The notes: a model not told the origin generated them from the letters alone. A DNA stretch of 64,000 nt from an uncultured Pseudomonadales bacterium (GCA_964447905.1 CAYUUK010000007.1:513-64512); one strand, 5' to 3'. Counted from the first letter of the stretch, positions 7,665-61,718 are shown. A program made the numbers and translations.

Positions 7665-7734
7665 TCATGACAGCATCATAGCACTTTTTTCATCCGCATT
7701 TTATGCAAAACCCAAATGGGTATATCATAGAGTC

Positions 7735-9534: not shown

Positions 9535-9589
9535 ATTCGTGCAGAGAATGCTGTACAATAATTCTCCACAACGAAGACATTGAGGTATA

Positions 9590-9745: not shown

Positions 9746-9780
9746 CTTCTTGTTTTTGGACACTGTACTCTTGAGAAGTG

Positions 9781-10256: not shown

Positions 10257-10282
10257 AACGAAGCTGTAGTGTAGCGTACTCT

Positions 10283-11188: not shown

Positions 11189-11215
11189 ATGTGCATCATA
11201 GCGTACACTGGCAGT

Positions 11216-11503
11216 ATGAAATGGTCTGTTTACATACTGCGGTGTGCGGATAACTCGCTGTACACCGGCTGCACCAACAATCTAGAAGAACGGCTGAAGA
11301 AACATAATGCTGGTCAGGGAGCAAAGTACACCCGGAGCCGACTGCCCGTATCTCTGGTGTATGCAGAAAAAAGTACAGATCGTTCGGCGGCATCGATTCG
11401 TGAGGCGGAGATCAAAAAGTACTCTCGCCAACAAAAAGAACAATTAGTGAGTGCCTCCGCTGATGCTCCTGAAGCGATGGTTTATACTACACAAAATACA
11501 TAA
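11216..11503 (+). CDS. GIY-YIG nuclease-domain protein (UPF0213/YhbQ-like)
   Basis: [29 protein letters not shown] is a classic GIY-YIG motif. Confidence 0.65.
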
Positions 11504-11513
11504 AGGACACACG

Positions 11514-12281: not shown

Positions 12282-12298
12282 CTTTTTACGAAGGAAGG

Positions 12299-13312: not shown

Positions 13313-13322
13313 GATTGGGGTT

Positions 13323-34892: not shown

Positions 34893-35987
34893 ATGCGTGC
34901 CCGGCTCATTAGTGTATTTTTTATTATTTTCCTTTTTTTTGGTGTGAACGCATCGTTTGTTTCTGCACAAGTTTTAACTGGGCGCTGTCTTGATAACTCA
35001 ATTGCGGCTACAGAAAATCACTTTGGCTGTAGTTTGCAGGGTGGTGGACTCGGTTCCACGCAAACACCGCGGTGGTCGTATGACGCCACAGATGATTTTG
35101 CTTGTAATGAAGGATTTGACGTAGATTTTGCTGCCTGTTCCGGAACCGCTCCTGTGTGTGGGGTAGGAGAGGAAAACTGCTGTTTGCCGTGTGCTCCAGA
35201 AGTGACCGAGGAGAGTGTTGGTCACGGAGGTTCCTGTGCGAATGGAGAAACCTGTGACTCGAATGCCTTACTCGTATGTCGAGCAGACCAGTGTTTGCGG
35301 AGGGTGGACTCTGTTTCCTTAGGTGGTGTTTGTTTTGATCAAAGTGAGTGTGGGATAGATTCTGGTCGGCCTTTAGTATGTGAAGAAGGACAGTGCCGCT
35401 TGCCAGCGGATGAGTTTGATCCCTGTACTGATGACGCCTTTTGCCAAGCTGAAACCGGCAATGCGCTCGCTGTTTGTAACCCGGTGAGCGGAACGTGTGT
35501 GGTATCGGTGTGTGAGTCGAATGCACAGTGTCGACAGGCATTGGGTGATGAAAACGCGATATGTAATGAGGCCACAGGGGCTTGTGTTATCAATGACAGT
35601 GAAGTTGCTGTAGAGGAAGAAGTGATTGATTTTAGTTACTGTTTGCAAGTGCCTGATGGGAATCAGCGCCGCAGCTGTGAGCAGTGTATTGAGCAAGGCG
35701 AAGAAGGTGAGTATGCTTACACGGCGGTGGGTTGTGTCCGCACCAATGGTCAAGGACTGACGGAAGACTTAGTTCGTTTACTCATGGGTGTTTCTGGCGG
35801 TGTAGCTATCATGAGTGACCTGGCAGGTGCATTTCTCCTCTCGGTTTCACGCGGTGACTCCTCGAAGGTAAAGGAAGCAAAAGACCTTATTACTGCTTCT
35901 ACTAGTGGACTCTTTTTCATTATTTTCTCGATATTCATTCTGCAGTTTGTGGGCGTATCCATTTTGCAAATACCTGGACTGGGATAA
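34893..35987 (+). CDS. secreted Cys-rich protein with a C-terminal two-TM pilin-like anchor (possible TrbC/VirB2-type CPR pilin family)
   Basis: Signal peptide, about 40 Cys in the ectodomain. The C-terminal hydrophobic-charged-hydrophobic module is about 84% identical to that of the next gene. Confidence 0.5.
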   Translation: MRARLISVFFIIFLFFGVNASFVSAQVLTGRCLDNSIAATENHFGCSLQGGGLGSTQTPRWSYDATDDFACNEGFDVDFAACSGTAPVCGVGEENCCLPCAPEVTEESVGHGGSCANGETCDSNALLVCRADQCLRRVDSVSLGGVCFDQSECGIDSGRPLVCEEGQCRLPADEFDPCTDDAFCQAETGNALAVCNPVSGTCVVSVCESNAQCRQALGDENAICNEATGACVINDSEVAVEEEVIDFSYCLQVPDGNQRRSCEQCIEQGEEGEYAYTAVGCVRTNGQGLTEDLVRLLMGVSGGVAIMSDLAGAFLLSVSRGDSSKVKEAKDLITASTSGLFFIIFSIFILQFVGVSILQIPGLG

Positions 35988-36036: not shown

Positions 36037-37659
36037 ATGCGTTTTCTGGGAACCCTCCTTGTTGGTATTGTACTGAGCAGTCTGTTTGCTCCACTCGTTT
36101 GGGCCCAGAATGGCTGTGCTGTGCCTGGTATTACTGGTTTTGAGCAGAGCCAAGCGCCCAATGGCGATTACGACCTTTTTACTTTCACCGGGTGTGTTCC
36201 CAACAGTTCGTATGACGATTTTGTTATCTCATTTTTCGATGCTTCCAATATTATGCTGCAAGAGAATATTGAGTTTACTCCCAGTATTGGTCCCGACGGA
36301 TCGTTTCGAGTAGAGCTCGATGCTTCTTTCCCAGAAGGAACGACCATGAACTACCAGCTCATTGTTGACGGCCAGCAGATTGGGAGTCTGGGATCTGTGT
36401 ACGTTGACTATACATTTGTAGAAGCTGAGGTAGTGAATCCGGCCTGTTCCGAAACACAAGAGTGTACTACAGCAGATGGTCAGCCCGGCTCAATGGAGTG
36501 TAGCGGAGAGCAAATAAATGGAGCGTGTGAACTGCAGAGTTGCGGAACCTGTATATCCGTAGCCGATCCAGTGCAGGAAGAGGATGTGCGCGAAGCGATG
36601 CCAGTAACGGTGCCAGAAAACGATGGCGAACCGGATATTTCCCAACAAGATCCCGATGCGGATATTATTGATTTTAGTTACTGTTTACAGGTGCCAGACG
36701 GGACTCAGCGCAGCAACTGTGAGCAGTGCATTAGCCAGGGTGAAGATGGCGAGTATGTGTATACAGCGGTGGGGTGTGTGCGTACCGCTGGCGCTGGTCT
36801 CACGAGAGATTTAGTTCGGCTGATGATGGGCGCGGTTGGTGGTGTTGCCATAATGAGCATCTTGGCCGGTGCATTCTTTTTAAGCATTTCGAGGGGAGAC
36901 TCCTCCAAAGTGAAAGAAGCCAAAGAGCTTATAACGGCGGCGGTTTCTGGTTTGTTCTTCATAATTTTCTCGATATTTATTCTTCAATTTGTAGGAGTGT
37001 CCATTTTGCAGATACCTGGTTTGGGTGGTAGTGGCGGACAGGGTGCGGTTCGACCAGTTTTTGATGATCCGAATATTCAAGGTGGGGGGCAAATTGGCGG
37101 AGGCAATCCGGCCGAGCCTGTGGCCGAAAATCCACCCGCAGTTCCAGCGGAGCCACAAGACACTGAGTGGCAACCAGAAGATGTGCAGTGGAGCACCAGT
37201 GTGGCGGATGACGGTTTTGTCGAGGTGTGTATTACCTATCCTCAGGCAGGTGTAGCTGACAACACGATTGGTGTGCGAGCAACTCCGTCTGTCTCGGGGT
37301 CTTCGTATCCGGTGTTTGAGTGGAGTTTGGGTGCGGCGCAAAAAGTGGCTGGCGAGCGGTATCGCCAGTGTGGTTCAGTTAATATCGAGTCGTACGCTGC
37401 AGAAGTTGTGGAGAATATCTATGAAAATCAGTTTGGATCGAGTCAGTCATTCCAAGGTGGTGTGATCGATGGTGGGCAGTTTAGTTACTCTGTTGGCGTG
37501 AGTCAAGTAGGAGCGGCTGATCCGAATGTCTCCGCTGCTGAGCGTGAGGCGTTTTTGAATGCTCTCCAGTCGCAAAACGCGCTCTTGCGAGTGGAGTATG
37601 CAGTAAATGGACAAACGTATACTGATTTTTCCATTCCGTTTGTAGGGATTGGTGGATAA
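36037..37659 (+). CDS. secreted Cys-rich protein, paralog of 34893..35987, with the same pilin-like module plus a 210 aa Gly-rich-linked C-terminal domain
   Basis: Signal peptide; IDFSYCLQVPDG...FIIFSIFILQFVGVSILQIPGLG shared with the upstream gene; GGSGGQ linker. Confidence 0.5.
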   Translation: MRFLGTLLVGIVLSSLFAPLVWAQNGCAVPGITGFEQSQAPNGDYDLFTFTGCVPNSSYDDFVISFFDASNIMLQENIEFTPSIGPDGSFRVELDASFPEGTTMNYQLIVDGQQIGSLGSVYVDYTFVEAEVVNPACSETQECTTADGQPGSMECSGEQINGACELQSCGTCISVADPVQEEDVREAMPVTVPENDGEPDISQQDPDADIIDFSYCLQVPDGTQRSNCEQCISQGEDGEYVYTAVGCVRTAGAGLTRDLVRLMMGAVGGVAIMSILAGAFFLSISRGDSSKVKEAKELITAAVSGLFFIIFSIFILQFVGVSILQIPGLGGSGGQGAVRPVFDDPNIQGGGQIGGGNPAEPVAENPPAVPAEPQDTEWQPEDVQWSTSVADDGFVEVCITYPQAGVADNTIGVRATPSVSGSSYPVFEWSLGAAQKVAGERYRQCGSVNIESYAAEVVENIYENQFGSSQSFQGGVIDGGQFSYSVGVSQVGAADPNVSAAEREAFLNALQSQNALLRVEYAVNGQTYTDFSIPFVGIGG

Positions 37660-39949: not shown

Positions 39950-41707
39950 TTACTCAATGTACTGGAATGAACCCTCGACCACTCGAAGCCCTGGAATAGG
40001 GGTGGAAGAAGAAGTAGCTGATGGTGTTTCACTGGTTTGTGCTGGTTGGAGGGTGTTGATGAGCCGGCGCAGCGTAGCAATTCCAAATGCGAGTCCAGTT
40101 CGAGCGACGGTTAAGGAGTGGTCGATGGAAAACTCTCCATCTTCTTCTTTGAGTTCGATAGCAAATTGGGTGAGTGTCTTTTGTGGCTGATCCTGACGAT
40201 TGGCTTCAACAGTACCTGTCGTTTGGGGTCCCTGAATAATTTCAATGTTGAGCTGTCTATTCTTAAAGAAATTCTTTCCTTGGTGAATGCGCGCTTCATA
40301 GGCGTATCCGTTTTCTGTCCATTGGAGTGCATACCCCTTGGAGGGGAGATTGCTCGGATTTTCTGGAGTTGTTGTTTCTGCGTTTTCTTCACAGAGGTTC
40401 CAGAGCTCTTGCGTTTGCTCCATGAGTTCTTCGGCATCCAGTCGAGCGTTTAGTTCCTGGAGGGTAAGGAGGTCGACATCGAGTTGGGTGAGAGGCCGCT
40501 CTTTTTGGCGTGGTTTTGCTTCGCGGTACTGGTAGGTTTGTTCGTTGGTTTTTTCTACGAGGGGATACAATTGCTCGGGCAAGAGGTACTCATGACGTGA
40601 AAGTGTCTCGGTTTTATTTGTATCTGAATTACGTTGAGTAACAGTGACTGTGATCTTTTTTTTGTCAGAAGAAGGTTGAATGATCAGATTTGTTCGTTCG
40701 CCAAGTGGAATGAGAGTGTGCTGGCTTTTAGTAATTTCATGAAGGAATCGCGTGCCTGGTTCATTTTTTACCCTGTACATATTAGGATTATTTTTTCTCT
40801 CTATAAGAACATTACTCGTGCCGCGCATGCCCGGACCTATTCCTAAAGATTCTTCTAAAGGTTGTGAAAAATATAACTCGATGTCCCAGAAGAGAGGGGA
40901 CTCAGCGTTCTTGTCATCGGTTTTTTCTCTTGTAAAAGTTACTTTCTCTCTTATTCGTGGATCACTAAATATTTTTGGTTGCTCTTCTTTTGGGATTGGG
41001 CGTGAAGTTTCTTCTAGGAATTCCTTCTTAGACATCGGCCAAAGTAAGTATGGTGAGTCTAGTTTGGCTATAGGTTTAGGATTTTCTAGATGCTGCCGTA
41101 TTACTGATTGTCTTGTTAGATGAGTGTCTACTTTGCCTAATACAAATTGTAAGGATTCTTGCAGTGATGGATCTTGTAAAAGAACTGGCTCTTTTGCTTT
41201 ATTGGCACTGTAGCCAGTATTAACGAAATACACTGATCCACTCGGTGCGACCGACGGATCAACCGCGGCGTGAACGAACTGAGTCTTAGTAAGGAGTTGG
41301 GTTGGCACTCCATTTTCAAATTGAATTACTGAGATATCGGCATGCCAGTGTGGTGAGTCAGAAGATGATTGCGCTGCCTTTTTTGCTATTTTGAACTGGA
41401 AGCCGCGGGTGCCTTCCTTGGTTCTCCATTTGTAAAATATCAAAATACCTTCGTTTTTTTCAATTTCTGCACCATTCGAAATAATTTCATTAACGATGTC
41501 ATTCTTTACAATTTGGTCTATCAATTGAGCTATTTTTTGAATGCTTGGCTCTGCCTCAGCCTCAACAAGTTTAAAGTTTCTCCCTTCAGTAAGGGGAACG
41601 AAATCAGGAAATGCTTTTTTGGCAGGGCTCTCCTTGGGCCAGTACGCAAGGTTTGGTCCTGGGTATTCACGGACGGTTGGTGTGCGCTTTCGAATTGCTT
41701 TTACCAT
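39950..41707 (-). CDS. hypothetical protein (orphan), low GC, divergent from lexA
   Basis: 585 aa ORF, no recognisable domain, no TM; GC is visibly lower than the surroundings. Confidence 0.45.
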   Translation of the reverse strand: MVKAIRKRTPTVREYPGPNLAYWPKESPAKKAFPDFVPLTEGRNFKLVEAEAEPSIQKIAQLIDQIVKNDIVNEIISNGAEIEKNEGILIFYKWRTKEGTRGFQFKIAKKAAQSSSDSPHWHADISVIQFENGVPTQLLTKTQFVHAAVDPSVAPSGSVYFVNTGYSANKAKEPVLLQDPSLQESLQFVLGKVDTHLTRQSVIRQHLENPKPIAKLDSPYLLWPMSKKEFLEETSRPIPKEEQPKIFSDPRIREKVTFTREKTDDKNAESPLFWDIELYFSQPLEESLGIGPGMRGTSNVLIERKNNPNMYRVKNEPGTRFLHEITKSQHTLIPLGERTNLIIQPSSDKKKITVTVTQRNSDTNKTETLSRHEYLLPEQLYPLVEKTNEQTYQYREAKPRQKERPLTQLDVDLLTLQELNARLDAEELMEQTQELWNLCEENAETTTPENPSNLPSKGYALQWTENGYAYEARIHQGKNFFKNRQLNIEIIQGPQTTGTVEANRQDQPQKTLTQFAIELKEEDGEFSIDHSLTVARTGLAFGIATLRRLINTLQPAQTSETPSATSSSTPIPGLRVVEGSFQYIE

Positions 41708-49348: not shown

Positions 49349-50122
49349 GTGAAATCCAAACAGAATACACAGCAAATTTCTTTAGTGCGTAAGCACTCTG
49401 ATCGTTATAATTCAGGAGTGACTGGGCGTTCTGTAAAGAAATCCGAAAGCGCAAAATCACTATTGGAGAAGTTACAGAATAGGTATACCGCATTTTCTGA
49501 GTGGATTTCTTCCCCACGTTCGCGCCGGTGGCGAGAAAAAGCTTTGTATTCTCTTGGAGTGAGTGTGGTGCTTGTTGGGGCAATAGCGGTATATATTACA
49601 TCGTTTACGAGCTTTGATTGGCGACAGTGGGCCTGGGGAGGTTCGCAGTTTTCAGGTGAGCAACTTTCCAGAGCGAGTGTTGTGAACCCGCAACTGATTG
49701 CTGTTGGGGAGCCAGAAGTGGCGGAGTTATTTACTGATCTTACATATCTTTATCCCCAAGCAGATATTTTGAATGTTCAAGATGATGAATTCGGCGTGAG
49801 CGTGGTAGCCGCGAAAGCCTTTGATGCAGAGTTACAACAAACACTGCTCTTTATTCGAGTAGAAAACGCACCGTTTTTGGAAGGAAGTATTCCCAAAATA
49901 TGGGTGAAAACACGAGATGGTCAAAACATTGAGGCTGGGGTGGGTGAGTATTTACTTGAGAATGGACAAGTGGTTGCGTACTTTATTACAACGGTTGAAG
50001 GGAGTGACGATATTTATAAAAGTGCTTCCTTAACACTTGATACGTTTCTTGATCAAGTTCAACCGTCTCCTGCTTTTTTTGTAGCGAATTTTGCTGATGA
50101 AGACACGGAGGTTTCATTATGA
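49349..50122 (+). CDS. membrane-anchored hypothetical protein
   Basis: Basic cytoplasmic head, one TM, extracytoplasmic domain; its stop overlaps the next start (ATGA). Confidence 0.35.
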   Translation: MKSKQNTQQISLVRKHSDRYNSGVTGRSVKKSESAKSLLEKLQNRYTAFSEWISSPRSRRWREKALYSLGVSVVLVGAIAVYITSFTSFDWRQWAWGGSQFSGEQLSRASVVNPQLIAVGEPEVAELFTDLTYLYPQADILNVQDDEFGVSVVAAKAFDAELQQTLLFIRVENAPFLEGSIPKIWVKTRDGQNIEAGVGEYLLENGQVVAYFITTVEGSDDIYKSASLTLDTFLDQVQPSPAFFVANFADEDTEVSL

Positions 50123-53100
50123 ACCGATTTGCTCGTCAGCTTGTTCTTGGCATATTTTTCGCAATTGGAGCATTTTTCTTATTTGCAACGACACCGGTTT
50201 ATGCGCTCTGTGATGGTTGGGCCAGTCCTGGGACAACACATCGAAATAACGGAAATGGGTGTTACTACACGTGCAGCGGTGACAGCTGGAGTGGACCGAC
50301 CAAATGTGATGGCGGTGGAGATGGTGAGTGTCAAGGATGCCAGAATGCGAGTAAAGAGGATGCCGCCCGAGCAGTGAAGCAACGGCAAAAAGAAGCTGAG
50401 AAAAAGATCGAAGAGCAAGGTGGCCTCAATAGTGAAGAAACAAAAAAAGTGCGAAGAGAGACTCAGCAGAAGTATGGTCAATCTGCACTCAACTCATCTG
50501 CTGCGCCGCGTGACGAAGATACTGCGGCGACAGAGTTAGCTGTTGTGGGACAAGAGTGTGATCCGAATTCAGGAAGTGCGGGCACTGTTGGCCCTGGTGG
50601 CCGATGTTGTATAGGTGGCGTAGTGGAGTGTAGTGCTGACACGAACGGAGTGTGTGGCGGCGGTATCGACCGTTTTGGTACGTATGGCGTGTGTGGCACG
50701 AAACCACGTTGTGGGGACGGCTTTGCTTCAGTACATGAATGCAGTGCTCCAAATGTCTGTCCGCGTGATTACAAATACTGTGCTGAGCAAGGTTTCGAGC
50801 AACCAGCAGAGGAAACAGTTGAACAAAAAACAGAGGAGTATCATCGAGAACGCTTTGATGAGCTCACCCAAGAGTGTCTCTTCGGCGAAGATGAGCTGCT
50901 CGAGGGAAATCTCAATGCAGATTGTGTTGGGCAACTCAGTCGAACAACACAAATTCTCACTGATGAAGGTGCTGATGAATCAGAATTAGAAAATCTAGTG
51001 GAACGGCGGCGAACCCTTGGAAATTACTACACCGCTGTCTATAGAGCTGCGCAAGCTGAAACACTTTGTGGCGGTGATTCTCAAGCCTGTGCCGAGGCTC
51101 GATCCGCTGCAAATGCTGAAGTAGCCCGCACCGAAATTGCCGTAACACAAGCGTTTTCCAAGAGTGTAGTAAATAAAGCCAAACGCTCGGCCGAGAAATA
51201 CAAAGAACAGGTCCAGACATTTACCCAAGAGCGTGTGGCAAAAAGTAGTGACTTACCGACAACGATGCGGTCCATTACCCAAAAGTGCGCCGCTGAGAGC
51301 AGTGCGGATGCGCAAGAACGGTGCTTGCGTGTGCAACTGCGCGTGCAGTTAGGTCTCGATCTCGACGATTCTGGCCAATTTGTTCAAGCTGAGGACAGCA
51401 CGTACTATCAGCAGTTTTGTGATGCGGCCGTGGTGCGCGAGGGTGCAGGGCACTGTCGACAAGAGCGAGCAACCGTTGCCGCCAACATACTGGCCCAGCA
51501 AGATGCCATTCCACAAATTACCGTAGCGCGAGGTGTGTGTAATTTCCCGGGAGGTTGCGAGTGTGAACACTATGGCATTCAAGTTAATGAGGGAGATCAG
51601 TGTTACAGCGAAGGATTTGACTGGGTGCGTGACTCTGCAGTAGCCCAGCAAGTACCAGACTGTGGTGGCGAGGGACAGGTGGCTTGTGGTGATGCAAGTC
51701 AAGTCTGTGATCCGGGAAATGATTTCCATGCGGGTACGAATCGTTGTTGGCAATCTGAGCGTGTGCGTGAGCTCGAAGCACAGGAGTCTCAACGAGATAC
51801 CTCTGCTCCATCTCGAAGTGAAGAGGACTACATTGAGTATCTCGATGCGGGAGAAGAGTGGGAGTTTTCCTATACTGGCAACGCTGTTGTGTGTGCTGGT
51901 GGTTCTGAACTGTTAGTGAACTACGATAGTCGCGGAAATATTACCACGCAGGCTTGTGTATCCTCTGACGATTTGAGAGAGATCGATGAAAATGAACTTT
52001 GTGCGGCAACTGGCAGAAATGGAGCCTGTCGTTGTAGCAGTAATGGGGCGGTGATAGATGCTGGATTGCGTTGTCCCAGTTCGTCTCAATTCACAGCGGA
52101 CTCACTCGAGAGTTGTCCTGTTGGCAATAGAGAGAGACTCACAGTGTTTTCTGAAACACTGGAAAATGGTATCCAGTGTCGTTTGGGAGCTGGTCTAGCA
52201 AATACGTGTCGGCCAGGCTTTGAGTATGTGTCGGGTAATGGTGGGGCACGATGTGTAAGAATTGATGATTTTTCGGAGTTTGGTCAGGATGCATTAGTAA
52301 GTCCTTCCGAGCAAGATCCATTAGTTTCTGTAGCCTCAGATTCAGCTGTGCTGCCGCCTAGGGAAGAAGTATCGAGTTCCGCAGATTATGGAGATGTATG
52401 GGCAAGTCCGGCTCGCCGCTCAGTGGAACCCATAGTTGTTGAAGAGATAACTTTGGCAGAGACGTATCAGGATGCACAATCTCGAGCAGATTCACTTGAT
52501 GGCTGTGGTGGGAATGAGCAGTACATGTGTTCCTTCGAAATTAATGGAACCGAAGTTCGCTTGTGCAAATCGTGGACCAGATTGGACTCCGTTTCCAAGC
52601 TTTGTTATACACCGGAGCGCTATGAAGCCTTACGCCAACGTCTCACAGAGGATGCCACTGCAGAGCGGTCTGAGCGCCAGGCAGCTGGATACGAACAATG
52701 CTCATCTGGCGAAGTCTCAGCAAATGGCTGTTTGCGAGAAAATGGTCGACTTACAGGACAAAGCTGTGTGTACTCTGATTCTCAAGAGTCAGCAAATACA
52801 TTTATTGCTCTCATTGACAGCGAGCTGTGTAGAGACCAGCAAGAGGAGGAACAAGCAGCGAGAGAAGCGCGGGCTTCGGCTTTTGTAGAAACTATTAATA
52901 CACTCAGTAGTACTGTTTCTGAGACCGTGACAGTGCTTTGGACAGGTGTACTCGGCCGTGCAGAGGCACAGAACAGAGAACAGATTGATACTCTCGCTCA
53001 GAGTGCTCAAGCCGAGCAAAACAAAATTGCGACGGGTAACTCAGTACAAGCTGTGGCTCGATTACGCGAGCGATACGAAGATTTATCTCGGCGGTGTGGT

Positions 53101-53430
53101 TGGGTGCGAACCGATGTTCCAACCGCCTGTACAGAAGTGCTCCCTTCCTTAGCTGAACTGCCTTGGAGTGAGTCGAATGAAACCGTTCGAAGGACTCTTG
53201 TGGAAGAGCGGGGAAATGCCTTTCATAATCGCGAAGTTTTTGCCGAAAACACCGAGTACATTGTGTGTGGCGAAAACGAAAATGGCACACCATACTACTG
53301 TTGTCCAGGGAATACGCTTTCAGAAATGAATGATGACGGTGGAGTTGAGTGTGTATCCCTTCCAGAGCAAGGACCGGCGCTGCCACCTGAAGAACCGCTC
53401 TCTACAGCAGCACCAGATGGCGCGGAATGA
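50119..53430 (+). CDS. very large secreted Cys-rich protein (orphan)
   Basis: 1103 aa with a signal peptide (MNRFARQLVLGIFFAIGAFFLFATTPVYA). More than 70 Cys, acidic, no TM anchor, no recognisable domain. Confidence 0.5.
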   Translation: MNRFARQLVLGIFFAIGAFFLFATTPVYALCDGWASPGTTHRNNGNGCYYTCSGDSWSGPTKCDGGGDGECQGCQNASKEDAARAVKQRQKEAEKKIEEQGGLNSEETKKVRRETQQKYGQSALNSSAAPRDEDTAATELAVVGQECDPNSGSAGTVGPGGRCCIGGVVECSADTNGVCGGGIDRFGTYGVCGTKPRCGDGFASVHECSAPNVCPRDYKYCAEQGFEQPAEETVEQKTEEYHRERFDELTQECLFGEDELLEGNLNADCVGQLSRTTQILTDEGADESELENLVERRRTLGNYYTAVYRAAQAETLCGGDSQACAEARSAANAEVARTEIAVTQAFSKSVVNKAKRSAEKYKEQVQTFTQERVAKSSDLPTTMRSITQKCAAESSADAQERCLRVQLRVQLGLDLDDSGQFVQAEDSTYYQQFCDAAVVREGAGHCRQERATVAANILAQQDAIPQITVARGVCNFPGGCECEHYGIQVNEGDQCYSEGFDWVRDSAVAQQVPDCGGEGQVACGDASQVCDPGNDFHAGTNRCWQSERVRELEAQESQRDTSAPSRSEEDYIEYLDAGEEWEFSYTGNAVVCAGGSELLVNYDSRGNITTQACVSSDDLREIDENELCAATGRNGACRCSSNGAVIDAGLRCPSSSQFTADSLESCPVGNRERLTVFSETLENGIQCRLGAGLANTCRPGFEYVSGNGGARCVRIDDFSEFGQDALVSPSEQDPLVSVASDSAVLPPREEVSSSADYGDVWASPARRSVEPIVVEEITLAETYQDAQSRADSLDGCGGNEQYMCSFEINGTEVRLCKSWTRLDSVSKLCYTPERYEALRQRLTEDATAERSERQAAGYEQCSSGEVSANGCLRENGRLTGQSCVYSDSQESANTFIALIDSELCRDQQEEEQAAREARASAFVETINTLSSTVSETVTVLWTGVLGRAEAQNREQIDTLAQSAQAEQNKIATGNSVQAVARLRERYEDLSRRCGWVRTDVPTACTEVLPSLAELPWSESNETVRRTLVEERGNAFHNREVFAENTEYIVCGENENGTPYYCCPGNTLSEMNDDGGVECVSLPEQGPALPPEEPLSTAAPDGAE

Positions 53431-53474
53431 AATTTTCAACCCACGACCTCTAGAAATCTGGTATTATGACTGGT

Positions 53475-54765
53475 ATGACAGTTACCGTTATTGGAACTGG
53501 GTTTGTGGGAGTTGTCACAGCCGCAGTCTTATCCTCCTTTGAAAATACCGTGTATGGCCTGGATATTGATCCGGCCAAAGTGAAGTCGCTTTCAACCGGG
53601 AAAGTTCCCTTTTTTGAGCCTGGTCTCGAAGATTTGCTGAAGCAGGAGTTGGATGCTGGTCGCCTTCATTTTACTGTCGACTATGCTGAAGCAATTTCTC
53701 AAGCTGATGTTATTTTGATTGCCGTTGGTACCCCTTCAGCACCAGATGGAAATGCCGATCTCACCTACGTAAAGAAAGCCGCTGAGTCGCTCGCTCCCCA
53801 CTTAAAAGAGGGTGCAGTTGTAGCCATTAAGAGTACCGTTCCTCCGGGAACTCTCGATATTGTTCGGCCAATTATAGAAGAGAAAGCGTCGGTTGATTTC
53901 GTCATGGCATCTTTGCCAGAATTTTTGCGCGAAGGCTCCGCTGTTGAGGACACACTGCACCCAGACCGTGTGGTTATTGGGTGTACTGATCCAAATGGCT
54001 TACGTGTTTTGCGTGAGCTGCATAAGCCATTCGGTGCGCCAATTATTGAGGTCAGTCCCGAAAGTGCGCAAATGGGCAAGTACTCCGCAAATGCGTATCT
54101 AGCCACTCGGATTACGTTTATTAATCAGATTGCTGATTTATGTGAGAAAAACGGCGCAGATGTGCGAGAAGTCATTAAGATTATCGGTCACGACAACCGT
54201 ATTGGCACGCACTACTGGTACCCTGGTTTCGGGTACGGTGGTTCCTGTTTCCCGAAAGACGTGAAAGAGTTAGCGGCCTACTCGCGCACGGTTGGGTATG
54301 GCAGTAATCTCTTTAATAAGATAACTGACCTGAATGAAGATCGTATTTTTGAGAAACTTGATCAGTACGAAAAAGTACTCGGTGGCTGGGAAGACAAAAC
54401 CGTAGCAGTACTCGGGCTTTCATTTAAGCCCCATACAGACGATATGCGCGAAGCGCCCAGTACGAAGATTGTGCCTCATTTGTTGAATAAAGGTGCCACT
54501 GTTCGAGGATATGATCCAATGGCCACTGAGGTGGCGGAGCAGGTACTTGGTCAATATGATCAACTGGCGTATTTTTCCGATATTGCTGAGGCCGTAGATG
54601 GTGCCGATATTGTTATGGCCGTGATCGAGTGGCCACAAATAACGAGTTTTGATTTCACCACTTTGAAACCACGGGTATTTATCGATGTACGCAATCAATT
54701 TTCAGCTGAAACTCTCGAGTCAGCTGGGTGGCAGTATGTAGGAGTGGGAACGGGAAAGCTGTCGC

Positions 54766-54773
<8 letters not shown>
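53475..54773 (+). CDS. ugd: UDP-glucose 6-dehydrogenase (UDP-glucose/GDP-mannose dehydrogenase family)
   Basis: VIGTGFVG NAD-binding motif; catalytic GFGYGGSCFPKD motif. Confidence 0.85.
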
Positions 54774-56711
<1,938 letters not shown>

Positions 56712-56725
56712 GAAAGCGGGGAGCC

Positions 56726-58000
56726 ATGGCAACAAAAAAAACATCAGTAAAAGCGGCTCAGAGAGCTTCCTCTCGTGAGAAAGCTATTATCATCATTCCC
56801 ACCTATAATGAGAAGCCGAACATCACAAAATTGTTGCCCCGGATTGATACCGTGAGAAAAAAGATCAGTGATTGGGATCTTGAGGTTTTGGTTGTGGATG
56901 ATTCTTCTCCAGACGGCACTGCCGAAGCAGTTGAGTCGCTGCAGAAAAAATATCCCTATCTTCACTTGCTTATTAACAAAAACAAAAGTGGACTTGGTGG
57001 GGCCTATCTGAAGGGCATGGCACATGCCTTCGGTAAGCTGAAAGCTGACGTTGTTTTTGAGATGGATGCAGATTTGTCACATGATCCAAAAAAGGTGCCA
57101 GAGTTTTTAGCGGCCCTCGATGCGGGTGCGGATATGGTACTTGGTTCACGATATATCCCTGGAGGATCTATTCCTTCTAATTGGGGATGGCATCGCAAGT
57201 TCTTGAGCGTTGCTGGCAATAACATCATATCTCTGGTTTTGTGGTCCCGCGCTGTTAAGGACTGGACTGGTGGCTATCGGGCCATTCGAAAAAGCGTGTA
57301 TAACAAGGTTCACACCGAGCTAGAGGCATCAGCTCGCTTTACTGGGTACACATTCCAAATTGGCTTTTTATTGAAAGCGATTCGGGGTGGCTTCAAGATA
57401 GCCGAAGTGCCTTTTCATTTTATTGATCGAGAAGTGGGAGAATCAAAATTGGGAACGGAGTACATAGTGAATACTTTGCGATACATTCTGAGCACACGAG
57501 TGCGAGAAATTATGCAGATGCGATTGTTTAAATTCGTGATTGTTGGAGGAGTGGGTTTTCTCGTAAATACCATCTTCTTTAATATTTTTAAGTACTTTGG
57601 CCTCTGGACTTCTCTTTCTACTACCTTTGGTATACCAGCCCAGCATGGTCTTTTAGAACTCATTTTGTCCGACCAAGCGTTGGCGGTTATTTTGTCCGCT
57701 GAGTTGGCAATACTTTCCAACTACTTGTGGAATAACCTGTGGACGTTCCAAGACCGCCAGATTCACGGCATCGTTTCTCACTTGAGCAAGTTTGCGCAGT
57801 TTAATCTTGGTTCCGTCGGTTCCATTTTTATTCAGTATGTAGTGATGCAAACTTCTTTACGGCTCTTCGGTGTGTTCACATTGCTCACACTGTTCGGATT
57901 GCCAATCGCGAGTGATAATCTGTACCTGGCAGCAGGAGTCATTATTGGTATGGTATGGAACTTCTCGATTTATAGTTTAGTCATTTGGAGAAAGAAGTAA
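56726..58000 (+). CDS. polyprenyl-phosphate glycosyltransferase (GT2, DPM1-like) fused to a C-terminal GtrA-like 4-TM domain
   Basis: IIIPTYNE...VVDDSSPDGT...EMDADLSHDP GT2 core; C-terminal FVIVGGVGFLVN GtrA motif. Confidence 0.75.
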   Translation: MATKKTSVKAAQRASSREKAIIIIPTYNEKPNITKLLPRIDTVRKKISDWDLEVLVVDDSSPDGTAEAVESLQKKYPYLHLLINKNKSGLGGAYLKGMAHAFGKLKADVVFEMDADLSHDPKKVPEFLAALDAGADMVLGSRYIPGGSIPSNWGWHRKFLSVAGNNIISLVLWSRAVKDWTGGYRAIRKSVYNKVHTELEASARFTGYTFQIGFLLKAIRGGFKIAEVPFHFIDREVGESKLGTEYIVNTLRYILSTRVREIMQMRLFKFVIVGGVGFLVNTIFFNIFKYFGLWTSLSTTFGIPAQHGLLELILSDQALAVILSAELAILSNYLWNNLWTFQDRQIHGIVSHLSKFAQFNLGSVGSIFIQYVVMQTSLRLFGVFTLLTLFGLPIASDNLYLAAGVIIGMVWNFSIYSLVIWRKK

Positions 58001-58004
58001 CCAG

Positions 58005-59627
58005 ATGTTTACAGCGCTGCGCCAGCAATATGTGCGATGGTGGACTCAACTTTCACGCGTAGAGCGCTGGGGGTGGATAAGCGTGGGAGTTGCTACCGCG
58101 CTTGGGGCGACGTATCGGCTTCTTTGGCTCAGAGAAACTATGCAGTTCTTGGCCGACCAGGGTCGGGACGTTATTACTGCCTACGGCATCTTGCATGGAG
58201 ATATTGCCTTAGTTGGACCTTCCACGAGTGTGGGGAGCATGTTTCTTGGTCCTTTTTACTACTATTTCATGGCGCCATGGTTGGCGTTGGCCGGAAATGA
58301 TCCAATTGGACCTTCTCTGGCAGTTGCGTTCATTGGAGTACTGACGCTTCCAGCACTCTTCTGGGTTGGCAAACGGCTCGTGGGCACGGTGCCGGCAGCC
58401 CTGGCAACTCTCATGTTTGCGGTTTCACCTGTAGCGGTTGAGTATACTCGTTTTTCGTGGAACCCAAATCCAGCTCCTATTGTGATGATCGTTCTTCTCT
58501 ATGCCACCTGGAAAGCCTGGAAAGGCTCCGCTCGTTGGTGGTTAGGGGTGGCGATTGCGTGGGCGATTATTATCCAACTGCACTATGTGGCGCTTTTGAG
58601 CTTAGCACCTGCGGGTCTCTTTTGGTTGGCCGATGTCTGGCGCTCTGTACGCTCCCAGCAGAGCTCGCGTTTGAAGGAGATCGCGGTGTGGACAGCAGCG
58701 AGTGTAGCGGCAGTGCTCATTTCTTGGGTCCCTTTGGTGCTATTTGATTTTCGTTTTGATCATCAGATTTCAAAAGGATTCGTTGATTTCCTCAATGGTG
58801 ATCCCAATGCGAGTAGTAAGACGCTGGTAGAAACACTCAGACGTGTATTTTCAGAGCAGCACGGTCGTGCTATGCACATTCTTTTTGAAGTATGGGGCGG
58901 AAGAGACTGGACTCAGTGGTTCCGGCAACTCAATACGGCGCTTCTGGCACTTTTTACTGGTGCTGGTGTCCTCGCGTGGTGGCGCTCGCGTACTACCAGT
59001 AAGGAAGCAGGCGTAGTTCTTACGCTCTTGGCGGTGCTTACCAGCGTTATTGGGCTTTCTTGGTATGATGGCGTTGTTTTCCACCACTATATTACCTACA
59101 TTTTACCGGCCACCTATCTTTTCACTGGTGTTGTTCTGGTTGAGCTGGTGCGACGATTCTCCGTCGTGGGTATGATTGTCAGTGGTAGTATTTTTGCCTA
59201 TGCCTTGTGGCTCGGTGTGCAACCAATCAGTATGCGATACCTTGAGCGCTTGGGCTGGACAGTGGACGACTATAAAACGACTGCCCAGATTATTTCACAA
59301 ACGCTTCCAGAAGGGGTTTCCTATGCGCTTACGCACCTTTCCGATGTGCGCGACTATCGGGGTTTAAGCTATCGATACTTTTTGTTAACTTCAGACAATC
59401 CACCTGTACCATTAGAGAATGCTGGTGATGCTGACTACTTAGTGATTGTTGCCGACAATCCTCGGCAAGCAAATGAAGTTCTTGGCTCCCCAGTCTATGA
59501 AGTGGTTATCTTCCCGAAAGGGGAGTACTCCACTATTGATATTGAAGATGGTCCACGGCTGTATTTTATTCAGCGTGAAAGAACACTTGTAGAAGGGCAA
59601 GACGCGGTTGCTCCTGAGGGCCAGTAG
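58005..59627 (+). CDS. GT-C-type glycosyltransferase (ArnT/PMT-like membrane protein)
   Basis: Polytopic N-terminal half with a loop of ArnT-family appearance; soluble C-terminal domain. Confidence 0.45.
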   Translation: MFTALRQQYVRWWTQLSRVERWGWISVGVATALGATYRLLWLRETMQFLADQGRDVITAYGILHGDIALVGPSTSVGSMFLGPFYYYFMAPWLALAGNDPIGPSLAVAFIGVLTLPALFWVGKRLVGTVPAALATLMFAVSPVAVEYTRFSWNPNPAPIVMIVLLYATWKAWKGSARWWLGVAIAWAIIIQLHYVALLSLAPAGLFWLADVWRSVRSQQSSRLKEIAVWTAASVAAVLISWVPLVLFDFRFDHQISKGFVDFLNGDPNASSKTLVETLRRVFSEQHGRAMHILFEVWGGRDWTQWFRQLNTALLALFTGAGVLAWWRSRTTSKEAGVVLTLLAVLTSVIGLSWYDGVVFHHYITYILPATYLFTGVVLVELVRRFSVVGMIVSGSIFAYALWLGVQPISMRYLERLGWTVDDYKTTAQIISQTLPEGVSYALTHLSDVRDYRGLSYRYFLLTSDNPPVPLENAGDADYLVIVADNPRQANEVLGSPVYEVVIFPKGEYSTIDIEDGPRLYFIQRERTLVEGQDAVAPEGQ

Positions 59628-59672
59628 GGTTCCATCTTCCCTGGCGCAGTGAGATCGTGATAGAGTATCGGT

Positions 59673-60425
59673 ATGCCAATTGAAAAGTTATCTGTTATCG
59701 TTCCCTCATATAACGAGGCGAAAAATTTTGGTCGAGGAGTGCTCGATGAAGTGATTACGTATCTCGAGCAACAACCCTATAGCTGGGAGCTGGTATTAAC
59801 CGATGATGGCTCGACTGACTCAACGGTAGCACTGCTCAAAGAGTTTGCTCGCGGAAAAGAGCAGGTGAAAATTGTGGAAAACCCACATCGCGGGAAAGGT
59901 CCTACAGTGTCCGCTGGTATGCTGGCCGCAACGGGCGACTTCCGGATTTTTACTGACTTTGACCAATCGACGCCGATTTCTGAAGTAGAGAAATTTATTC
60001 CCTTTATTGATGATGGCTATGAAGTGGTGATTGGTTCCCGAGCGGTACAAGGAGCTCGCCGTCAAGATGAACCACTGCATCGTCACCTTATGGGAAAAGC
60101 CTTCAATATTCTCGTGCAGCTGATAGCTGTACCCGGTATCTATGACACCCAGTGTGGTTTTAAACTGTTCTCTGCGAAATCAGCTGAAGAGCTTTTTCCA
60201 AAGTTACAAGTGTATGGAGATAAAGCTCGCCAAGATGCCTTTACCGGTGCTTTTGACGTTGAGCTGTTGCTCTTAGCCCGGCGATTTGGCTACCGAATTG
60301 CGGAAGTGCCGGTCATTTGGCACCATCACGAGACCGACCGAGTGAGTCCGTTGAAAGATTCTGTATTGATGCTTCGAGACATTGTTATTATCCGTTTGAA
60401 CGACCTTCAGCGACGATACAAATAG
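59673..60425 (+). CDS. family 2 glycosyltransferase (polyprenyl-phosphate sugar synthase, DPM1/ArnC-like)
   Basis: LSVIVPSYNE...LTDDGSTD...DFDQS. Confidence 0.8.
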   Translation: MPIEKLSVIVPSYNEAKNFGRGVLDEVITYLEQQPYSWELVLTDDGSTDSTVALLKEFARGKEQVKIVENPHRGKGPTVSAGMLAATGDFRIFTDFDQSTPISEVEKFIPFIDDGYEVVIGSRAVQGARRQDEPLHRHLMGKAFNILVQLIAVPGIYDTQCGFKLFSAKSAEELFPKLQVYGDKARQDAFTGAFDVELLLLARRFGYRIAEVPVIWHHHETDRVSPLKDSVLMLRDIVIIRLNDLQRRYK

Positions 60426-60437
60426 ATTTTTGAGAGC

Positions 60438-61718
60438 ATGAAACGCACAATCAACAGCAAAACCACACTTTGGTTTTCACTGTTGGTTGGTCTGAGCTGG
60501 CTGATTACGGCACTGGCCACCAGTTGGTGGTCATATTACCTGGTTGATCCGAATCTCACCTTGTTTTCTTTTCCGTTTTTTGTCGAGTGGCAGACTCAGA
60601 TGTGGGCGCGAGCAAAAGACGTGGCGCACATTACTTGGTTTTACATCTTCTTGCTTGGTGTTTGGTGGAGCCTCTATGCAGTCATAGTGCAGTGGATGCG
60701 CCGAACTGGCGTCCAGCGAGTTCCTCGCTGGGTGATGCTTACGTTGTTCGGCGTTGTGTTGGTACTTTTTTTAGGTCATAACGCGCTGTCGCACGATATT
60801 TTTAATTACCTGTTTAATGCCAAGATGGTTGCCGTGTATGGAGCGAATCCTCATGTACAAGTAGCTTTGTATTTTGCGCAAGATCCCTGGACGCGCTTTA
60901 TGCACAATACGCACACTGCCGCTCCGTATGGTTGGGGGTGGACAGTAGTTTCTCTTGTTCCGTTTCTTATCAGTGGGGGGATTTTTGCCGTTGCGTACTT
61001 TGGTATGAAACTCGTTATGGTACTCGGCTTTGGTTTGTATCTGTGGGCTATTTGGCGAGTTCTACAGCAGCGATTTCCGCAGTCGGCCATCTGGCGGTGG
61101 AGTTTGGTGGCTTTTCATCCACTCCTTTTGATTGAGACGCTGCTGGTTGGACACAACGACGTCTGGATGATGTGGCCGGCAGTTTTGGCAATGAGCTGGT
61201 TGTGTTGTCGGAAATCATCTCTGGCATGGTGGAAGTATCTGGGTGCGGGAGCACTTTTTGCGTTTTCGATTTCGATTAAATTAGCCACCGTTGTGTTACT
61301 TCCTTTCTTGATCTGGTGGATGTTACCGAAAGGTTGCGATGAACGAATAGTGAGCTCAGTGACTGGCAAGAAATTCGCTGCGAAGTTTTTGCGATTTGTG
61401 CGTCGGTATCAAGCTGACTTAGCCGCCCTGTTGATGCTTATCCCGCTCATGACTCCCCGGGCACAGCAGTTTCATCCGTGGTACTTCATTTGGGTGCTCA
61501 CCTTTGTGCCGATGGTACGGGCTCAGTGGTGGCGCGCCGCTGTGCTTGGACTGTCGATTACCTCGACATTCCGATATGTGCCACTGATGTTTGCTGGGTG
61601 GGAGTACTCGCCGCTGATTCAACTGCAGATGCGCGGCATAACTTGGTCCGGTTTTATTCTTGGACTAGTTACCTGGGCCACTTGGAAAGTAGTAATTTCT
61701 CTTAGAGCACGTAAATAA
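60438..61718 (+). CDS. polytopic membrane protein, possible GT-C-like mannosyltransferase
   Basis: About 11 TM; architecture and genomic context only. Confidence 0.3.
   Translation: MKRTINSKTTLWFSLLVGLSWLITALATSWWSYYLVDPNLTLFSFPFFVEWQTQMWARAKDVAHITWFYIFLLGVWWSLYAVIVQWMRRTGVQRVPRWVMLTLFGVVLVLFLGHNALSHDIFNYLFNAKMVAVYGANPHVQVALYFAQDPWTRFMHNTHTAAPYGWGWTVVSLVPFLISGGIFAVAYFGMKLVMVLGFGLYLWAIWRVLQQRFPQSAIWRWSLVAFHPLLLIETLLVGHNDVWMMWPAVLAMSWLCCRKSSLAWWKYLGAGALFAFSISIKLATVVLLPFLIWWMLPKGCDERIVSSVTGKKFAAKFLRFVRRYQADLAALLMLIPLMTPRAQQFHPWYFIWVLTFVPMVRAQWWRAAVLGLSITSTFRYVPLMFAGWEYSPLIQLQMRGITWSGFILGLVTWATWKVVISLRARK

Follow-up and report, generated by a model that had tools for sequence, protein, structure and literature searches.

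The 64,000-nucleotide stretch of DNA that was analysed (the window) carries two co-oriented genes, A and B, of a tiny-genome CPR bacterium that is Microgenomates/Woesebacteria-like, with closest relatives annotated as Ca. Woesebacteria (FtsH 96% identical). The features of the locus are collected in table 1. An earlier sequence-only reading had described two open reading frames of 257 and 1103 amino acids with an ATGA overlap, and this is what we find: the stop of A and the start of B share these four nucleotides, and a GGAGG Shine-Dalgarno-like element lies 7 nt ahead of the ATG of B. The ATGA overlap with a GGAG-like element is also present in orthologous loci L001/L006, L002 and L004, and a 4-nt overlap recurs in L007 and L008. 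Given the overlap, the upstream GGAGG and the same junction in orthologues, the genes are, as judged from their sequences, translationally coupled and kept as a unit across genomes. The start of A is ambiguous: GTG 49349 would give 257 aa and GTG 49385 would give 245 aa, the latter matching the annotated start of A in an orthologue.

Table 1. Features of the A/B locus in window coordinates
Feature	Position	Strand	Character	Basis
Gene A	49349..50122	+	257-aa Cys-free bitopic membrane protein (predicted)	ORF call, AlphaFold2 model
A K/R-rich cytoplasmic head, aa 1-62	49349..49534	+	variable, nearly absent in ~half of family	alignment A1
A single transmembrane helix, aa ~63-89	49535..49615	+	N-in (predicted)	Kyte-Doolittle, AlphaFold2, preceding positive charges (read from sequence)
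A juxtamembrane motif	49616..49645	+	D90-x-R92-x-x-A95-W96-G-G98	invariant columns, alignments A1 and A2
A extracytoplasmic helix and 9-strand β-sandwich, aa ~120-250	49706..50098	+	predicted fold	AlphaFold2 pLDDT ~87-93
A/B coupling junction	50107..50122	+	GGAGG 50107-50111, B ATG 50119-50121, A TGA 50120-50122	
Gene B	50119..53430	+	1103-aa secreted acidic protein, 56 Cys	
B Sec-type signal peptide, aa 1-29	50119..50205	+	R3/R6 n-region, hydrophobic core, ..VYA/L cleavage site	hydropathy, judged by eye
B N-module, aa 31-101	50209..50421	+	four-Cys knot and charged helix	sole region common to 25/25 relatives
B second conserved 10-Cys module, aa 147-221	50557..50781	+	CDxNxGSxxxVGxGxxCCxGGVVECxxxTNGxC...	
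B fast-diverging body, aa ~300-1103	51016..53427	+	long predicted helices alternating with Cys clusters	

The pair is embedded in housekeeping synteny, the order FtsH-exonuclease-A-B-UGDH being conserved across genomes with UDP-glucose dehydrogenase (UGDH) directly 3' of B. A glycan/PMT-type cluster, with UDP-sugar and glycosyltransferase genes, lies downstream of B in the window, L001, L004, L007 and L008, and no disulfide-forming machinery was found within the window. B had also been counted as the third large Cys-rich secreted protein of the window. Two other Cys-rich ORFs with signal peptides are indeed present, at 34893-35987 (364 aa, 28 Cys) and 36037-37659 (540 aa, 14 Cys); both are much smaller than B, unrelated to it and carry a hydrophobic T4SS-pilin-like domain.

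Protein A contains no Cys, one His and no internal Met (pI 4.85). Its only hydrophobic segment, approximately residues 63-89 (Kyte-Doolittle window >1.6), follows a K/R-rich sequence, and the AlphaFold2 model (mean pLDDT 76) places a helix at residues 56-86 and leaves residues 1-33 below pLDDT 50. Hydropathy and model agree on the single transmembrane segment and extracytoplasmic domain proposed earlier. The basic cytoplasmic head, which had been proposed as well, exists in this protein and is not a family feature, since it is nearly missing from about half of the relatives (the short-headed orthologues are those of L002 and L009-L012). The conserved parts are instead the transmembrane helix, the juxtamembrane motif, which takes the variant form D-I-F-x-K-A-W-[ST]-G in L009-L012, and the β-sandwich. 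Together, the alignments and the model show A as a predicted bitopic membrane protein of N-in orientation, whose ectodomain is a β-sandwich free of Cys and whose juxtamembrane motif is invariant. Foldseek returned only weak, generic Ig-like/β-sandwich matches for this ectodomain; there is no specific structural relative by this search, and therefore the fold gives no functional clue. The A family comprises nine clusters in 5.8 billion sequences.

The composition of protein B is unusual, with 56 Cys (5.1%), about tenfold over the window background of approximately 0.5%, and 180 D+E against 98 K+R. The cysteine count is lower than the >70 given in the sequence-only reading; the signal peptide, the acidic character (pI 4.47) and the lack of a membrane anchor described there agree with our hydropathy and composition data. 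Nor does B have a second transmembrane segment, a lipobox or a known wall-binding domain. A bacterial lipoprotein was rejected, as the lipobox [LVI][ASTVI][GAS]C is missing; B reads ..VYA-L-C and most relatives have an analogous A-x-A site, then one residue, then the first Cys, which by eye is a signal peptidase I pattern. Sortase anchoring was rejected as well: neither B nor any of its relatives has a C-terminal LPxTG, and their C-termini are hydrophilic. A multihaem cytochrome is contradicted by the absence of CxxCH motifs from each of the 25 family members, and a phage structural or receptor-binding protein by the lack of a PHROG match and by the conserved housekeeping synteny. S-layer proteins are typically Cys-poor, and the earlier suggestion of a surface layer is disfavoured by the 56 Cys of B and the lack of an SLH, S-layer or similar domain in Pfam.

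Neither A nor B matched anything in Pfam, NCBIfam, PHROGs, PADLOC or PDB. For B nothing appeared in Pfam at E≤0.1 or in NCBIfam at E≤1, so the statement that it contains no known domains stands, and homology to a characterised family, which had been named as a finding that would speak against the reading, did not emerge.

The N-module follows the pattern CDGWAxxGxxHRNxGNGCxYxCxxxxWxGPxxCDG, to which this B adds C71 and C74. Its model (pLDDT ~70) has three β-strands, and no significant match was obtained against PDB and Pfam. The second, 10-Cys module is common to P0002-P0004 and others, with a strict regex match in 11/25 relatives. In the body, cysteines lie at residues 317-324, 390-402 and 434-446 (two each), 474-543 (eight), 592-712 (ten), 796-829 and 861-904 (four each), 993-1004 (two) and 1050-1078 (four). 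The secondary structure of B is of low confidence, the structure model being unreliable (mean pLDDT 38.7). Neither DNA tandem repeats nor self-BLAST repeats were detected, which upholds, at the level of sequence, the claim that B has no internal repeats; its architecture is cryptically modular all the same, with about 12 local even-numbered Cys clusters and three copies of CGGxxQxxC.

Between B and its closest orthologue, Cys is kept at 53/56 positions (95%), whereas the two proteins are 42% identical overall (Fisher p 1.6e-17). Of the full-length relatives, 16/16 have an even number of Cys in the mature protein (p 1.5e-5). Local clusters are even in 152/160 cases, compared with 45±4% in the permutation null, and 0/2000 permutations reached the observed level. 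By these measures the cysteines behave as approximately 28 obligatory, locally paired putative disulfides in about 12 modules between helical stretches. The conservation, the even totals and the even clusters together suggest that B is built as a string of helices and disulfide modules, each module closed in itself. Judged at the level of sequence, B thus has the properties of an extracytoplasmic disulfide-bonded protein: its cysteines are conserved, even in number and locally paired, and it carries an export signal.

The term orphan, applied to B earlier, was too strong, because 25 relatives came out of an exhaustive HMMER search through 1.84 billion representatives. All that they share is the N-terminal four-Cys module (CDGWA..HRN.GNGC.Y.C....W.GP..CDG) and the following helix. 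Comparison across related genomes, which had been proposed as a check, showed that the A-B pair is kept: in 14/14 loci recovered, from 10 distinct lineages and at least two neighbourhoods, B is preceded by an A-family gene of the same orientation. This conservation strengthens the earlier structural reading of a coupled membrane-anchored protein and a large secreted partner. Five of the 14 loci were fetched with the B N-module as sole bait, and there the A profile gave hmmsearch E values of 1e-40 to 1e-44. The L002 pair sits in a different neighbourhood (NrdR/RNR). A directly precedes B in every lineage except L013, which has an extra ORF between them, and one sub-family carries the N-module 85-200 aa away from the mature N-terminus; a strict N-terminal geometry thus does not hold throughout the family.

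Identity to the closest genome is 96% for FtsH, 84% for UGDH, 76% for the exonuclease, 56% for A and 41% for B. In blocks of 50 aa, B and its closest orthologue are 58-86% identical in the first 300 aa and 12-52% identical in the body, and in more distant genomes only the N-module can be aligned. These identities demonstrate that the B body, as far as sequence comparison can tell, diverges far faster than the neighbouring genes. The frameshift that splits the L001 orthologue could raise the suspicion that the B ORF is mis-assembled, chimeric or non-coding. This is extremely improbable and was rejected: the independent assembly L006 has an intact, colinear ORF of 1231 aa and L001 equals L006 but for seven indels, so the split is an indel error. 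Moreover, the window B is colinear with the orthologue over residues 1-1099, it resembles the surrounding window in GC content, and a non-coding sequence is not compatible with the statistics on Cys conservation and parity. The intact orthologue also excludes the mis-assembled fusion that the sequence-only reading had named as a possible refutation.

What could such a pair do? Most likely it forms a surface-tethered, fast-evolving interaction protein. More specifically, we propose, with a probability of roughly 40%, that A and B are a dedicated two-component cell-surface module of this Microgenomates/Woesebacteria-like CPR bacterium, in which A docks B at the membrane. After Sec export and cleavage of the signal peptide, the N-module of B would emerge at the membrane surface, where A could capture it non-covalently through the juxtamembrane motif, the β-sandwich or both and would thereby act as a membrane dock. 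The disulfide-rigidified, acidic and fast-evolving body would then project outward and could mediate contact with cells or surfaces, such as those of an episymbiont host or particles, or shield the cell. On the one hand, the conserved parts of A (transmembrane helix, motif and β-sandwich) and of B (N-module) are those expected to be membrane-proximal, and B is without an alternative anchor; the coupling and co-occurrence of the genes, the disulfide architecture and fast evolution of B and the confidently modelled fold of A speak for the proposal as well. On the other hand, adjacency and coupling fit A as a helper or chaperone equally well, and the exceptions to the N-terminal geometry, the lack of a specific structural relative for A, the unreliable model of B and the lack of disulfide-forming machinery in the window count against it. 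Attachment to a host by B is plausible from its sequence, as it fits the very fast divergence of the body and published speculation on CPR bacteria (PMC4736985).

If A were a dedicated membrane-tethered helper in export, folding or assembly, it would hold the N-terminus of B while approximately 28 disulfides form, and B would then be released or otherwise attached. This is possible, if on the unlikely side. The coupling and co-occurrence data apply to it equally, the oxidative folding problem of B is extreme, and A has a generic binding fold and no catalytic signature. However, the lack of Cys rules A out as a thiol-disulfide oxidoreductase, no family of chaperones or foldases matched it, and nothing else in B is recognisable as a retention device. 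We consider it unlikely that A is a separate accessory and that the N-module is a small disulfide-stabilised, CBM-like glycan binder (an aromatic wedge) tethering B to wall or surface polysaccharide or to host glycan. Conserved W/Y/W/F, N/H/R and G residues in a predicted three-strand, two-disulfide knot would suit this role, and the gene cluster that follows B in the window and four other loci might supply the polysaccharide. The N-module also resembles CBM1 (PF00734), an essentially fungal family, in being small (~35 aa in CBM1), in its four Cys and predicted three β-strands and in a W-x-G-P-T-x-C motif; C-x4-W-x-G-P-T-x-C of one member matches Pfam CBM_1 at E 0.0054. But CBM1 was rejected: that match covers 15 residues (profile positions 3-17 of 29 only), scores 17.1 bits against the curated cutoff of 20.6 and occurs in 1/11 N-module sequences, and the Cys pattern is not colinear with that of CBM1. 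Furthermore, no glycosylation cluster lies beside the pair in L002, and the obligatory partner A is left unexplained.

Two further roles seem very unlikely to us. A could be an RskA-style anti-sigma-like or sensor transmembrane protein with B as its extracellular ligand or sensor arm; like proteins with the RskA C-terminal domain (PF10099), A is bitopic with a β-rich extracytoplasmic domain, and by eye we take its sequence pattern to resemble such domains. Yet 0/6 members match PF10099 or any anti-sigma family even at E≤10, no sigma factor gene is adjacent, the Cys-free A has no zinc-binding anti-sigma motif, and, with the head variable or missing in about half of the family, there is no conserved cytoplasmic output domain. 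Polymorphic toxins likewise combine a conserved N-terminus with a highly variable remainder, and one distant relative has a sub-threshold metallopeptidase-like match (E 0.005); the N-module would then be a trafficking or secretion handle, the variable rest a payload and A an export or immunity partner. Against such an effector, searches of B and its relatives gave no toxin or defence domain, the variability extends over the whole ~1000-aa body, in which orthologues keep a common Cys scaffold, no immunity gene lies downstream, where UGDH follows directly and syntenically, and A is upstream and extracytoplasmic.

A life attached to host cells is assumed for CPR bacteria, and large Cys-rich exoproteins without annotation abound in their genomes; outside Saccharibacteria we know of essentially no contact molecules for them. 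If A docks B as proposed, the locus offers a testable unit: a docking-type module of ~45 aa with four Cys, a small, well-folding, obligatory partner and a rule by which all Cys are paired within local clusters of even number. Recombinant fragments could test the interaction and the disulfide map directly, and the CDGWA module or the A profile provides a sequence handle for finding this variable surface protein in new genomes. The family was not described before. Its rarity, with 25 representatives among 1.84 billion proteins, limits its general importance unless it is an instance of a wider anchoring principle. It is tempting, if rather speculative, to see here an undescribed "dock-and-fibre" surface system of a few Microgenomates/CPR lineages, in which A would capture the CDGWA two-disulfide knot of a giant, all-Cys-bonded exoprotein of variable length (1100-3500 aa) and the hypervariable body would serve as an episymbiont host-recognition adhesin.

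Among known proteins, the best Foldseek matches to the A ectodomain were periplasmic P19/FetP/Tp34-type and other E-set/Ig-like β-sandwiches (E 7e-3, probability up to 0.96). Considering that TM-scores are ≤0.4 and identity ≤10%, and that A lacks the His/Met/Cys for such metal sites, this likeness, so far as the model goes, is a generic fold resemblance only. In size (>1000 aa), signal peptide, several-fold Cys excess and CPR host, B falls into the descriptive class of large Cys-rich CPR exoproteins, for example those of Ca. Peribacter riflensis with 7.2±2.4% Cys (Anantharaman et al. 2016, PMC4736985), for which an attachment role has been proposed. Like them, B is large, has a signal peptide, several per cent Cys and no functional annotation, and both hosts are small-genome CPR bacteria with heavy investment in envelope glycans. 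The phylum differs (Peregrinibacteria there, Microgenomates/Woesebacteria-like here). Moreover, the Peribacteria proteins weakly resemble pappalysin and the Cys-rich repeat of Myxococcus (PMC4736985), which B does not share; the Myxococcus cysteine-rich repeat/DUF4215-type class was rejected, with no NCBIfam (TIGR02232) match at E≤1 and no Pfam match at E≤0.1. That work (PMC4736985) describes neither an obligatory upstream membrane partner nor the N-terminal CDGWA module nor a rule of even disulfide clusters, all of which are features of A/B. A functional analogy, and only that, can be drawn with the cohesin-dockerin pairs that anchor cellulosome scaffoldins; neither in sequence nor in structure did a similarity to them emerge. 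A dockerin is a Ca-binding EF-hand-like module and not a disulfide knot; in both cases, if A binds B as we infer, a cell-bound β-sandwich would hold the small end module of a large exoprotein.

The genes for the membrane protein A and the Cys-rich secreted protein B form a real, conserved and very rare two-gene surface module. Both ORFs are present as the sequence-only reading described them, the stop of A being joined to the start of B by an ATGA overlap, and its structural description (a membrane-anchored protein plus a secreted, Cys-rich, acidic one) was largely right. The GTG at 49385, an alternative start of A, matches the orthologue's annotated start. The GC content of the region is unremarkable relative to the window, and promoter and terminator scans gave counts not above those of shuffled sequence.

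Coordinates of the A-B pair, of other window features and of features in related loci (L001, L006, L013)
Feature	Position	Strand	Remark
A	49349-50122	+	257 aa, GTG start
GGAGG element	50107-50111	+	7 nt 5' of B ATG
B	50119-53430	+	1103 aa, ATG start
Glycan/protein-glycosylation cluster	53466-61718	+	directly 3' of B
300-nt direct repeat	979-1278 and 1900-2199		99% identity
Repeat-sharing ORF	1009-1920		303 aa
Repeat-sharing ORF	1930-3222		430 aa
CAP-domain protein	12299-13348	-	349 aa
Six-Cys ORF	22853		177 aa
DUF4012 protein	27599-29734	+	711 aa
Signal-peptide protein	34893-35987	+	364 aa, 28 Cys (7.7%)
Adjacent signal-peptide protein	36037-37659	+	540 aa, 14 Cys
Large ORF	39950-41707	-	585 aa
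L001, split B orthologue	7697-8098 / 8001-11393		frameshift in A-run
L006, intact B gene	8777-12472		1231 aa
L013, extra ORF	1854-2642		262 aa, 7 Cys

An A-family gene lies 5' of a B-family gene on the same strand in 14 of 14 loci, which represent 10 distinct lineages: the window, L001/L006 (Woesebacteria MAGs), L002/L003 (JGI/Logan), L004/L005 (Logan), L007 and L008 (GTDB MAGs) and the metagenome loci L009-L013. The last five were found with only the N-module of B as bait, the four-Cys CDGWA module that defines the family, and their A genes match the A profile with hmmsearch E values of 1e-40 to 1e-44. A is immediately 5' of B in every locus except L013; the ATGA overlap occurs in six lineages, and the gap is 2-6 nt in L009-L012. 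In L013 the module takes a three-gene form: an extra ORF with one TM segment overlaps the A stop by 4 nt, and its end lies 1 nt ahead of the B start.

The usual neighbourhood is FtsH-(K+ channel)-5'-3' exonuclease-A-B-UDP-glucose dehydrogenase (UGDH)-epimerases-glycosyltransferases. The neighbourhood of L002 differs, with NrdR and ribonucleotide reductase 3' of the pair, which indicates that A-B travels as a unit. The glycosylation cluster of the window, syntenic in L001, L004, L007 and L008 but not in L002, encodes UGDH, two NAD-dependent epimerases/dehydratases, GT2+GtrA, PMT_2 (protein mannosyltransferase-like), GT2 and a 426-aa ORF without a Pfam match; the L001 gene at the position of this ORF is MptA/B-like.

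In L001 (public Woesebacteria assembly JAJOJZ01) the B orthologue is split, and in L006 (sister assembly JAJOJK01) it is intact. The two differ only in 7 indels and have 0 mismatches; the split is therefore an assembly error, and the 133-aa and 1130-aa proteins annotated in L001 are artefacts. The closest relatives are annotated as Ca. Woesebacteria, 0.1-µm fractions of groundwater, such as that of Hainich H43, are the source of related loci, and the window organism is CPR-like. The MAGs of L007 (CAYWTN010000001.1) and L008 (CAZEEI010000002.1) are titled "uncultured Pseudomonadales", a label that is probably wrong; they have the FtsH-exonuclease-A-B-UGDH-epimerase synteny of the Woesebacteria loci, and their FtsH is 71% identical to that of the window.

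Scans of A and B against Pfam, NCBIfam, PHROGs and PADLOC returned no matches, in agreement with the earlier statement that B has no known domains, and sequence searches of PDB with B and with the profiles of the A family and of the N-module had no significant match (best E 0.96). The label "orphan" was nonetheless wrong, since exhaustive phmmer against 1.84 billion representatives recovered 25 relatives of B at E≤1e-3. They span 123-3515 aa, the shortest being fragments, and for almost every one the best match is confined to B residues ~1-150. A k-mer/HMMER search gave one full-length relative, a Ca. Woesebacteria hypothetical protein (37% identity over 90% of the query), and two further large proteins that have only the N-terminal part in common with B. 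Relatives of A form 9 clusters in 5.8 billion proteins.

From the alignment of relatives, the consensus of the N-module is C-D-G-W-A-x2-G-x2-H-R-N-x-G-N-G-C-x-Y-x-C-x4-W-x-G-P-x2-C-D-G-x-G-N-G-x-F-Q, directly followed by a charged helical stretch. In most members it starts one residue past an A-x-A signal-peptidase-type site; in one sub-family an extension of 85-200 aa precedes it, with the signal peptide still at the protein start. Of the 25 members, 11 also have a second module, with 10 Cys (CDxNxGS...CCxGGVVEC...). A CBM_1 identity of the N-module was rejected, the resemblance being at motif level only. In distant relatives, the only domains found were an FHA domain, in a single protein of 2410 aa, and a phage metallopeptidase match below threshold, both of which are uninformative. 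The relatives P0025 (3515 aa) and P0027, together with L009-L012, form a low-Cys sub-family (1.3-2.7% Cys) in which a distinct Cys-containing leader of ~60 aa (HKCGEVCNQWTEQGACTHGC...) and a long helical spacer rich in Ala, Glu and Lys precede the CDGWA module; their partners are short-headed A proteins with the motif D-I-F-x-K-A-W-[ST]-G.

B contains 56 Cys (5.1% of residues), where more than 70 had been claimed; the mean for the other long ORFs in the window is ~0.5%. In L006, the closest distinct orthologue and the reference for Cys conservation and identity, 53 of the 56 are kept, versus 42% overall identity (Fisher p 1.6e-17). The number of Cys beyond the signal peptide is even in all 16 full-length (≥1000 aa) family members (binomial p 1.5e-5). 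Those of the window protein fall into 12 clusters, holding 6, 10, 2, 2, 2, 2, 8, 10, 4, 4, 2 and 4, and all 12 are even at every gap threshold between 25 and 35. Across the family, 152 of 160 clusters have an even count, versus 45±4% with permuted gaps, and the observed value was reached in 0 of 2000 permutations. Conservation, even counts and even clusters together argue that every Cys of B is paired locally, and indicate ~28 putative disulfides in ~12 self-contained modules. Such predicted pairing of all Cys is the hallmark of oxidised extracytoplasmic proteins. No disulfide-forming machinery was found among the window ORFs; the six-Cys ORF has no Pfam match.

The only hydrophobic segment of B is N-terminal and ends in ..TPVYA|LCDGW; the protein is acidic (pI 4.47; D+E 180 versus K+R 98), its Ser+Thr content is 14%, and it could be a glycosylation substrate. 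It has no CxxCH, C-terminal LPxTG or lipobox, and a CGGxxQxxC motif occurs at 317, 515 and 796. Searches for tandem DNA repeats and self-BLAST found no internal repeats, as had been stated before. The full-length AlphaFold2 model (4-sequence alignment) is unreliable, with a mean pLDDT of 38.7, and was not used for a fold search because matches would be meaningless. It is moderately confident only in the N-module, predicted as three short β-strands (pLDDT ~70), and in helices at ~950-1030; the secondary-structure trace suggests long helices (79-119, 234-460, 832-855, 896-1043) between irregular Cys-rich regions.

A (pI 4.85, 0 Cys) has a single hydrophobic segment at ~63-89, preceded by K/R-rich sequence. 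In family alignments the cytoplasmic head is variable, being almost absent in L002 and L009-L012, and the conserved parts are the TM helix, a juxtamembrane motif (invariant D90, R92, A95, W96 and G98) and the C-terminal domain (for example F168-x-R-x-E-N-x-P and W185). The AlphaFold2 model (9-sequence alignment, mean pLDDT 76) predicts a TM helix at 56-86 and a helix plus nine-strand β-sandwich at ~120-250 (pLDDT ~87-93). Foldseek found no specific relative of this model in PDB or BFVD: matches in PDB (P19/FetP/Tp34, CBM21, DUF4426, Ig domains) are weak and generic to β-sandwiches (best E 7e-3, TM-score ≤0.4), and those in BFVD, to CMV US-family Ig-like membrane glycoproteins, are weak as well (E ≥1e-3). 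A has a single His and neither internal Met nor Cys, so it lacks a P19-like metal site. An RskA-type anti-sigma identity, suspected from a motif resemblance noticed by eye, was rejected: no member matches PF10099 (RskA C-terminal domain of anti-sigma-K factor) even at E≤10, there is no adjacent sigma gene, and the head is not conserved.

Judged by identity to L006, A (56%), B (41%) and above all the fast-diverging body of B evolve much faster than their syntenic neighbours FtsH (96%), UGDH (84%), exonuclease (76%) and K+ channel (70%). Within B, identity is 58-86% over the first 300 residues and 12-52% beyond. Against L004, L007 and L008 it is 71-76% for FtsH, 66-67% for UGDH and ~33% for A, and B can be aligned only in short N-terminal stretches (the N-module; the second module in L008). 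This divergence is the pattern expected for surface-exposed proteins. At 41% identity to the closest distinct orthologue, synonymous sites are saturated, and there are no substitutions between L001 and L006.

Several other window features were noted. The 364-aa and 540-aa proteins are unrelated to B and paralogous to each other over a ~110-aa segment (IDFSYCLQVPDG...GVSILQIPGLG) with two hydrophobic helices; the longer has a sub-threshold PF18895 T4SS_pilin match (E 2.8e-4) and the shorter no Pfam match. Each may consist of a Cys-rich head domain joined to a VirB2/TrbC-like pilin. The 349-aa protein combines a TM segment at its N-terminus with a CAP (cysteine-rich secretory protein/SCP) domain at 236-318 (E 6e-5) and is predicted to be another extracytoplasmic protein. 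The direct repeat gives the 303-aa and 430-aa ORFs, neither with a Pfam match, the same ~90-aa N-terminus. The DUF4012 protein and the 585-aa ORF, the latter without any Pfam match, are large and unannotated.

Coupling, co-occurrence, topology signals, disulfide statistics and the divergence pattern come from the data, and from them we infer the rest of the simplest model, to which we give a probability of roughly 0.4. B would be exported by Sec and its signal peptide cleaved, so that its N-terminal knot would emerge at the outer face of the membrane, where the only conserved parts of A, the juxtamembrane motif and the β-sandwich, would also sit. A may thus be a membrane dock for B, which would otherwise have no retention device, and the disulfide-stapled, acidic, hypervariable body of B would project outward and contact other cells or surfaces. 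Host attachment, suggested earlier, is plausible as a candidate function, and a surface-layer role is disfavoured.

It is unlikely that A instead helps B to fold or assemble and that B is then released. Rather doubtful, too, is tethering of B to polysaccharide by the N-module as a glycan-binding wedge, a reading supported by the aromatic/polar composition of the module, a sub-threshold 15-residue CBM_1 motif match in 1 of 11 members and the glycosylation cluster that frequently adjoins A-B. Anti-sigma-like signalling by the pair is highly improbable given the missing PF10099 match, sigma gene and conserved head, and just as remote is a polymorphic toxin-like role of B as an effector. That the B ORF is an artefact, such as a fusion of mis-assembled fragments, has a negligible probability, because it is colinear with the intact L006 gene over residues 1-1099.

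The closest described proteins come from CPR bacteria. Large Cys-rich extracellular proteins with signal peptides and ~7% Cys are known from CPR Peregrinibacteria, and a role in attachment and variation between strains were speculated for them (PMC4736985), and large extracellular proteins have been noted in Gracilibacteria (PMC6851277). B fits this descriptive class without being a member of any named family, and the literature searched contains no description of an obligatory membrane partner, of the CDGWA module or of the even-cluster rule. A finding of this kind will not surprise CPR specialists, but the A-B pair offers an unusually well-defined and experimentally tractable handle on how giant Cys-rich surface proteins are displayed.
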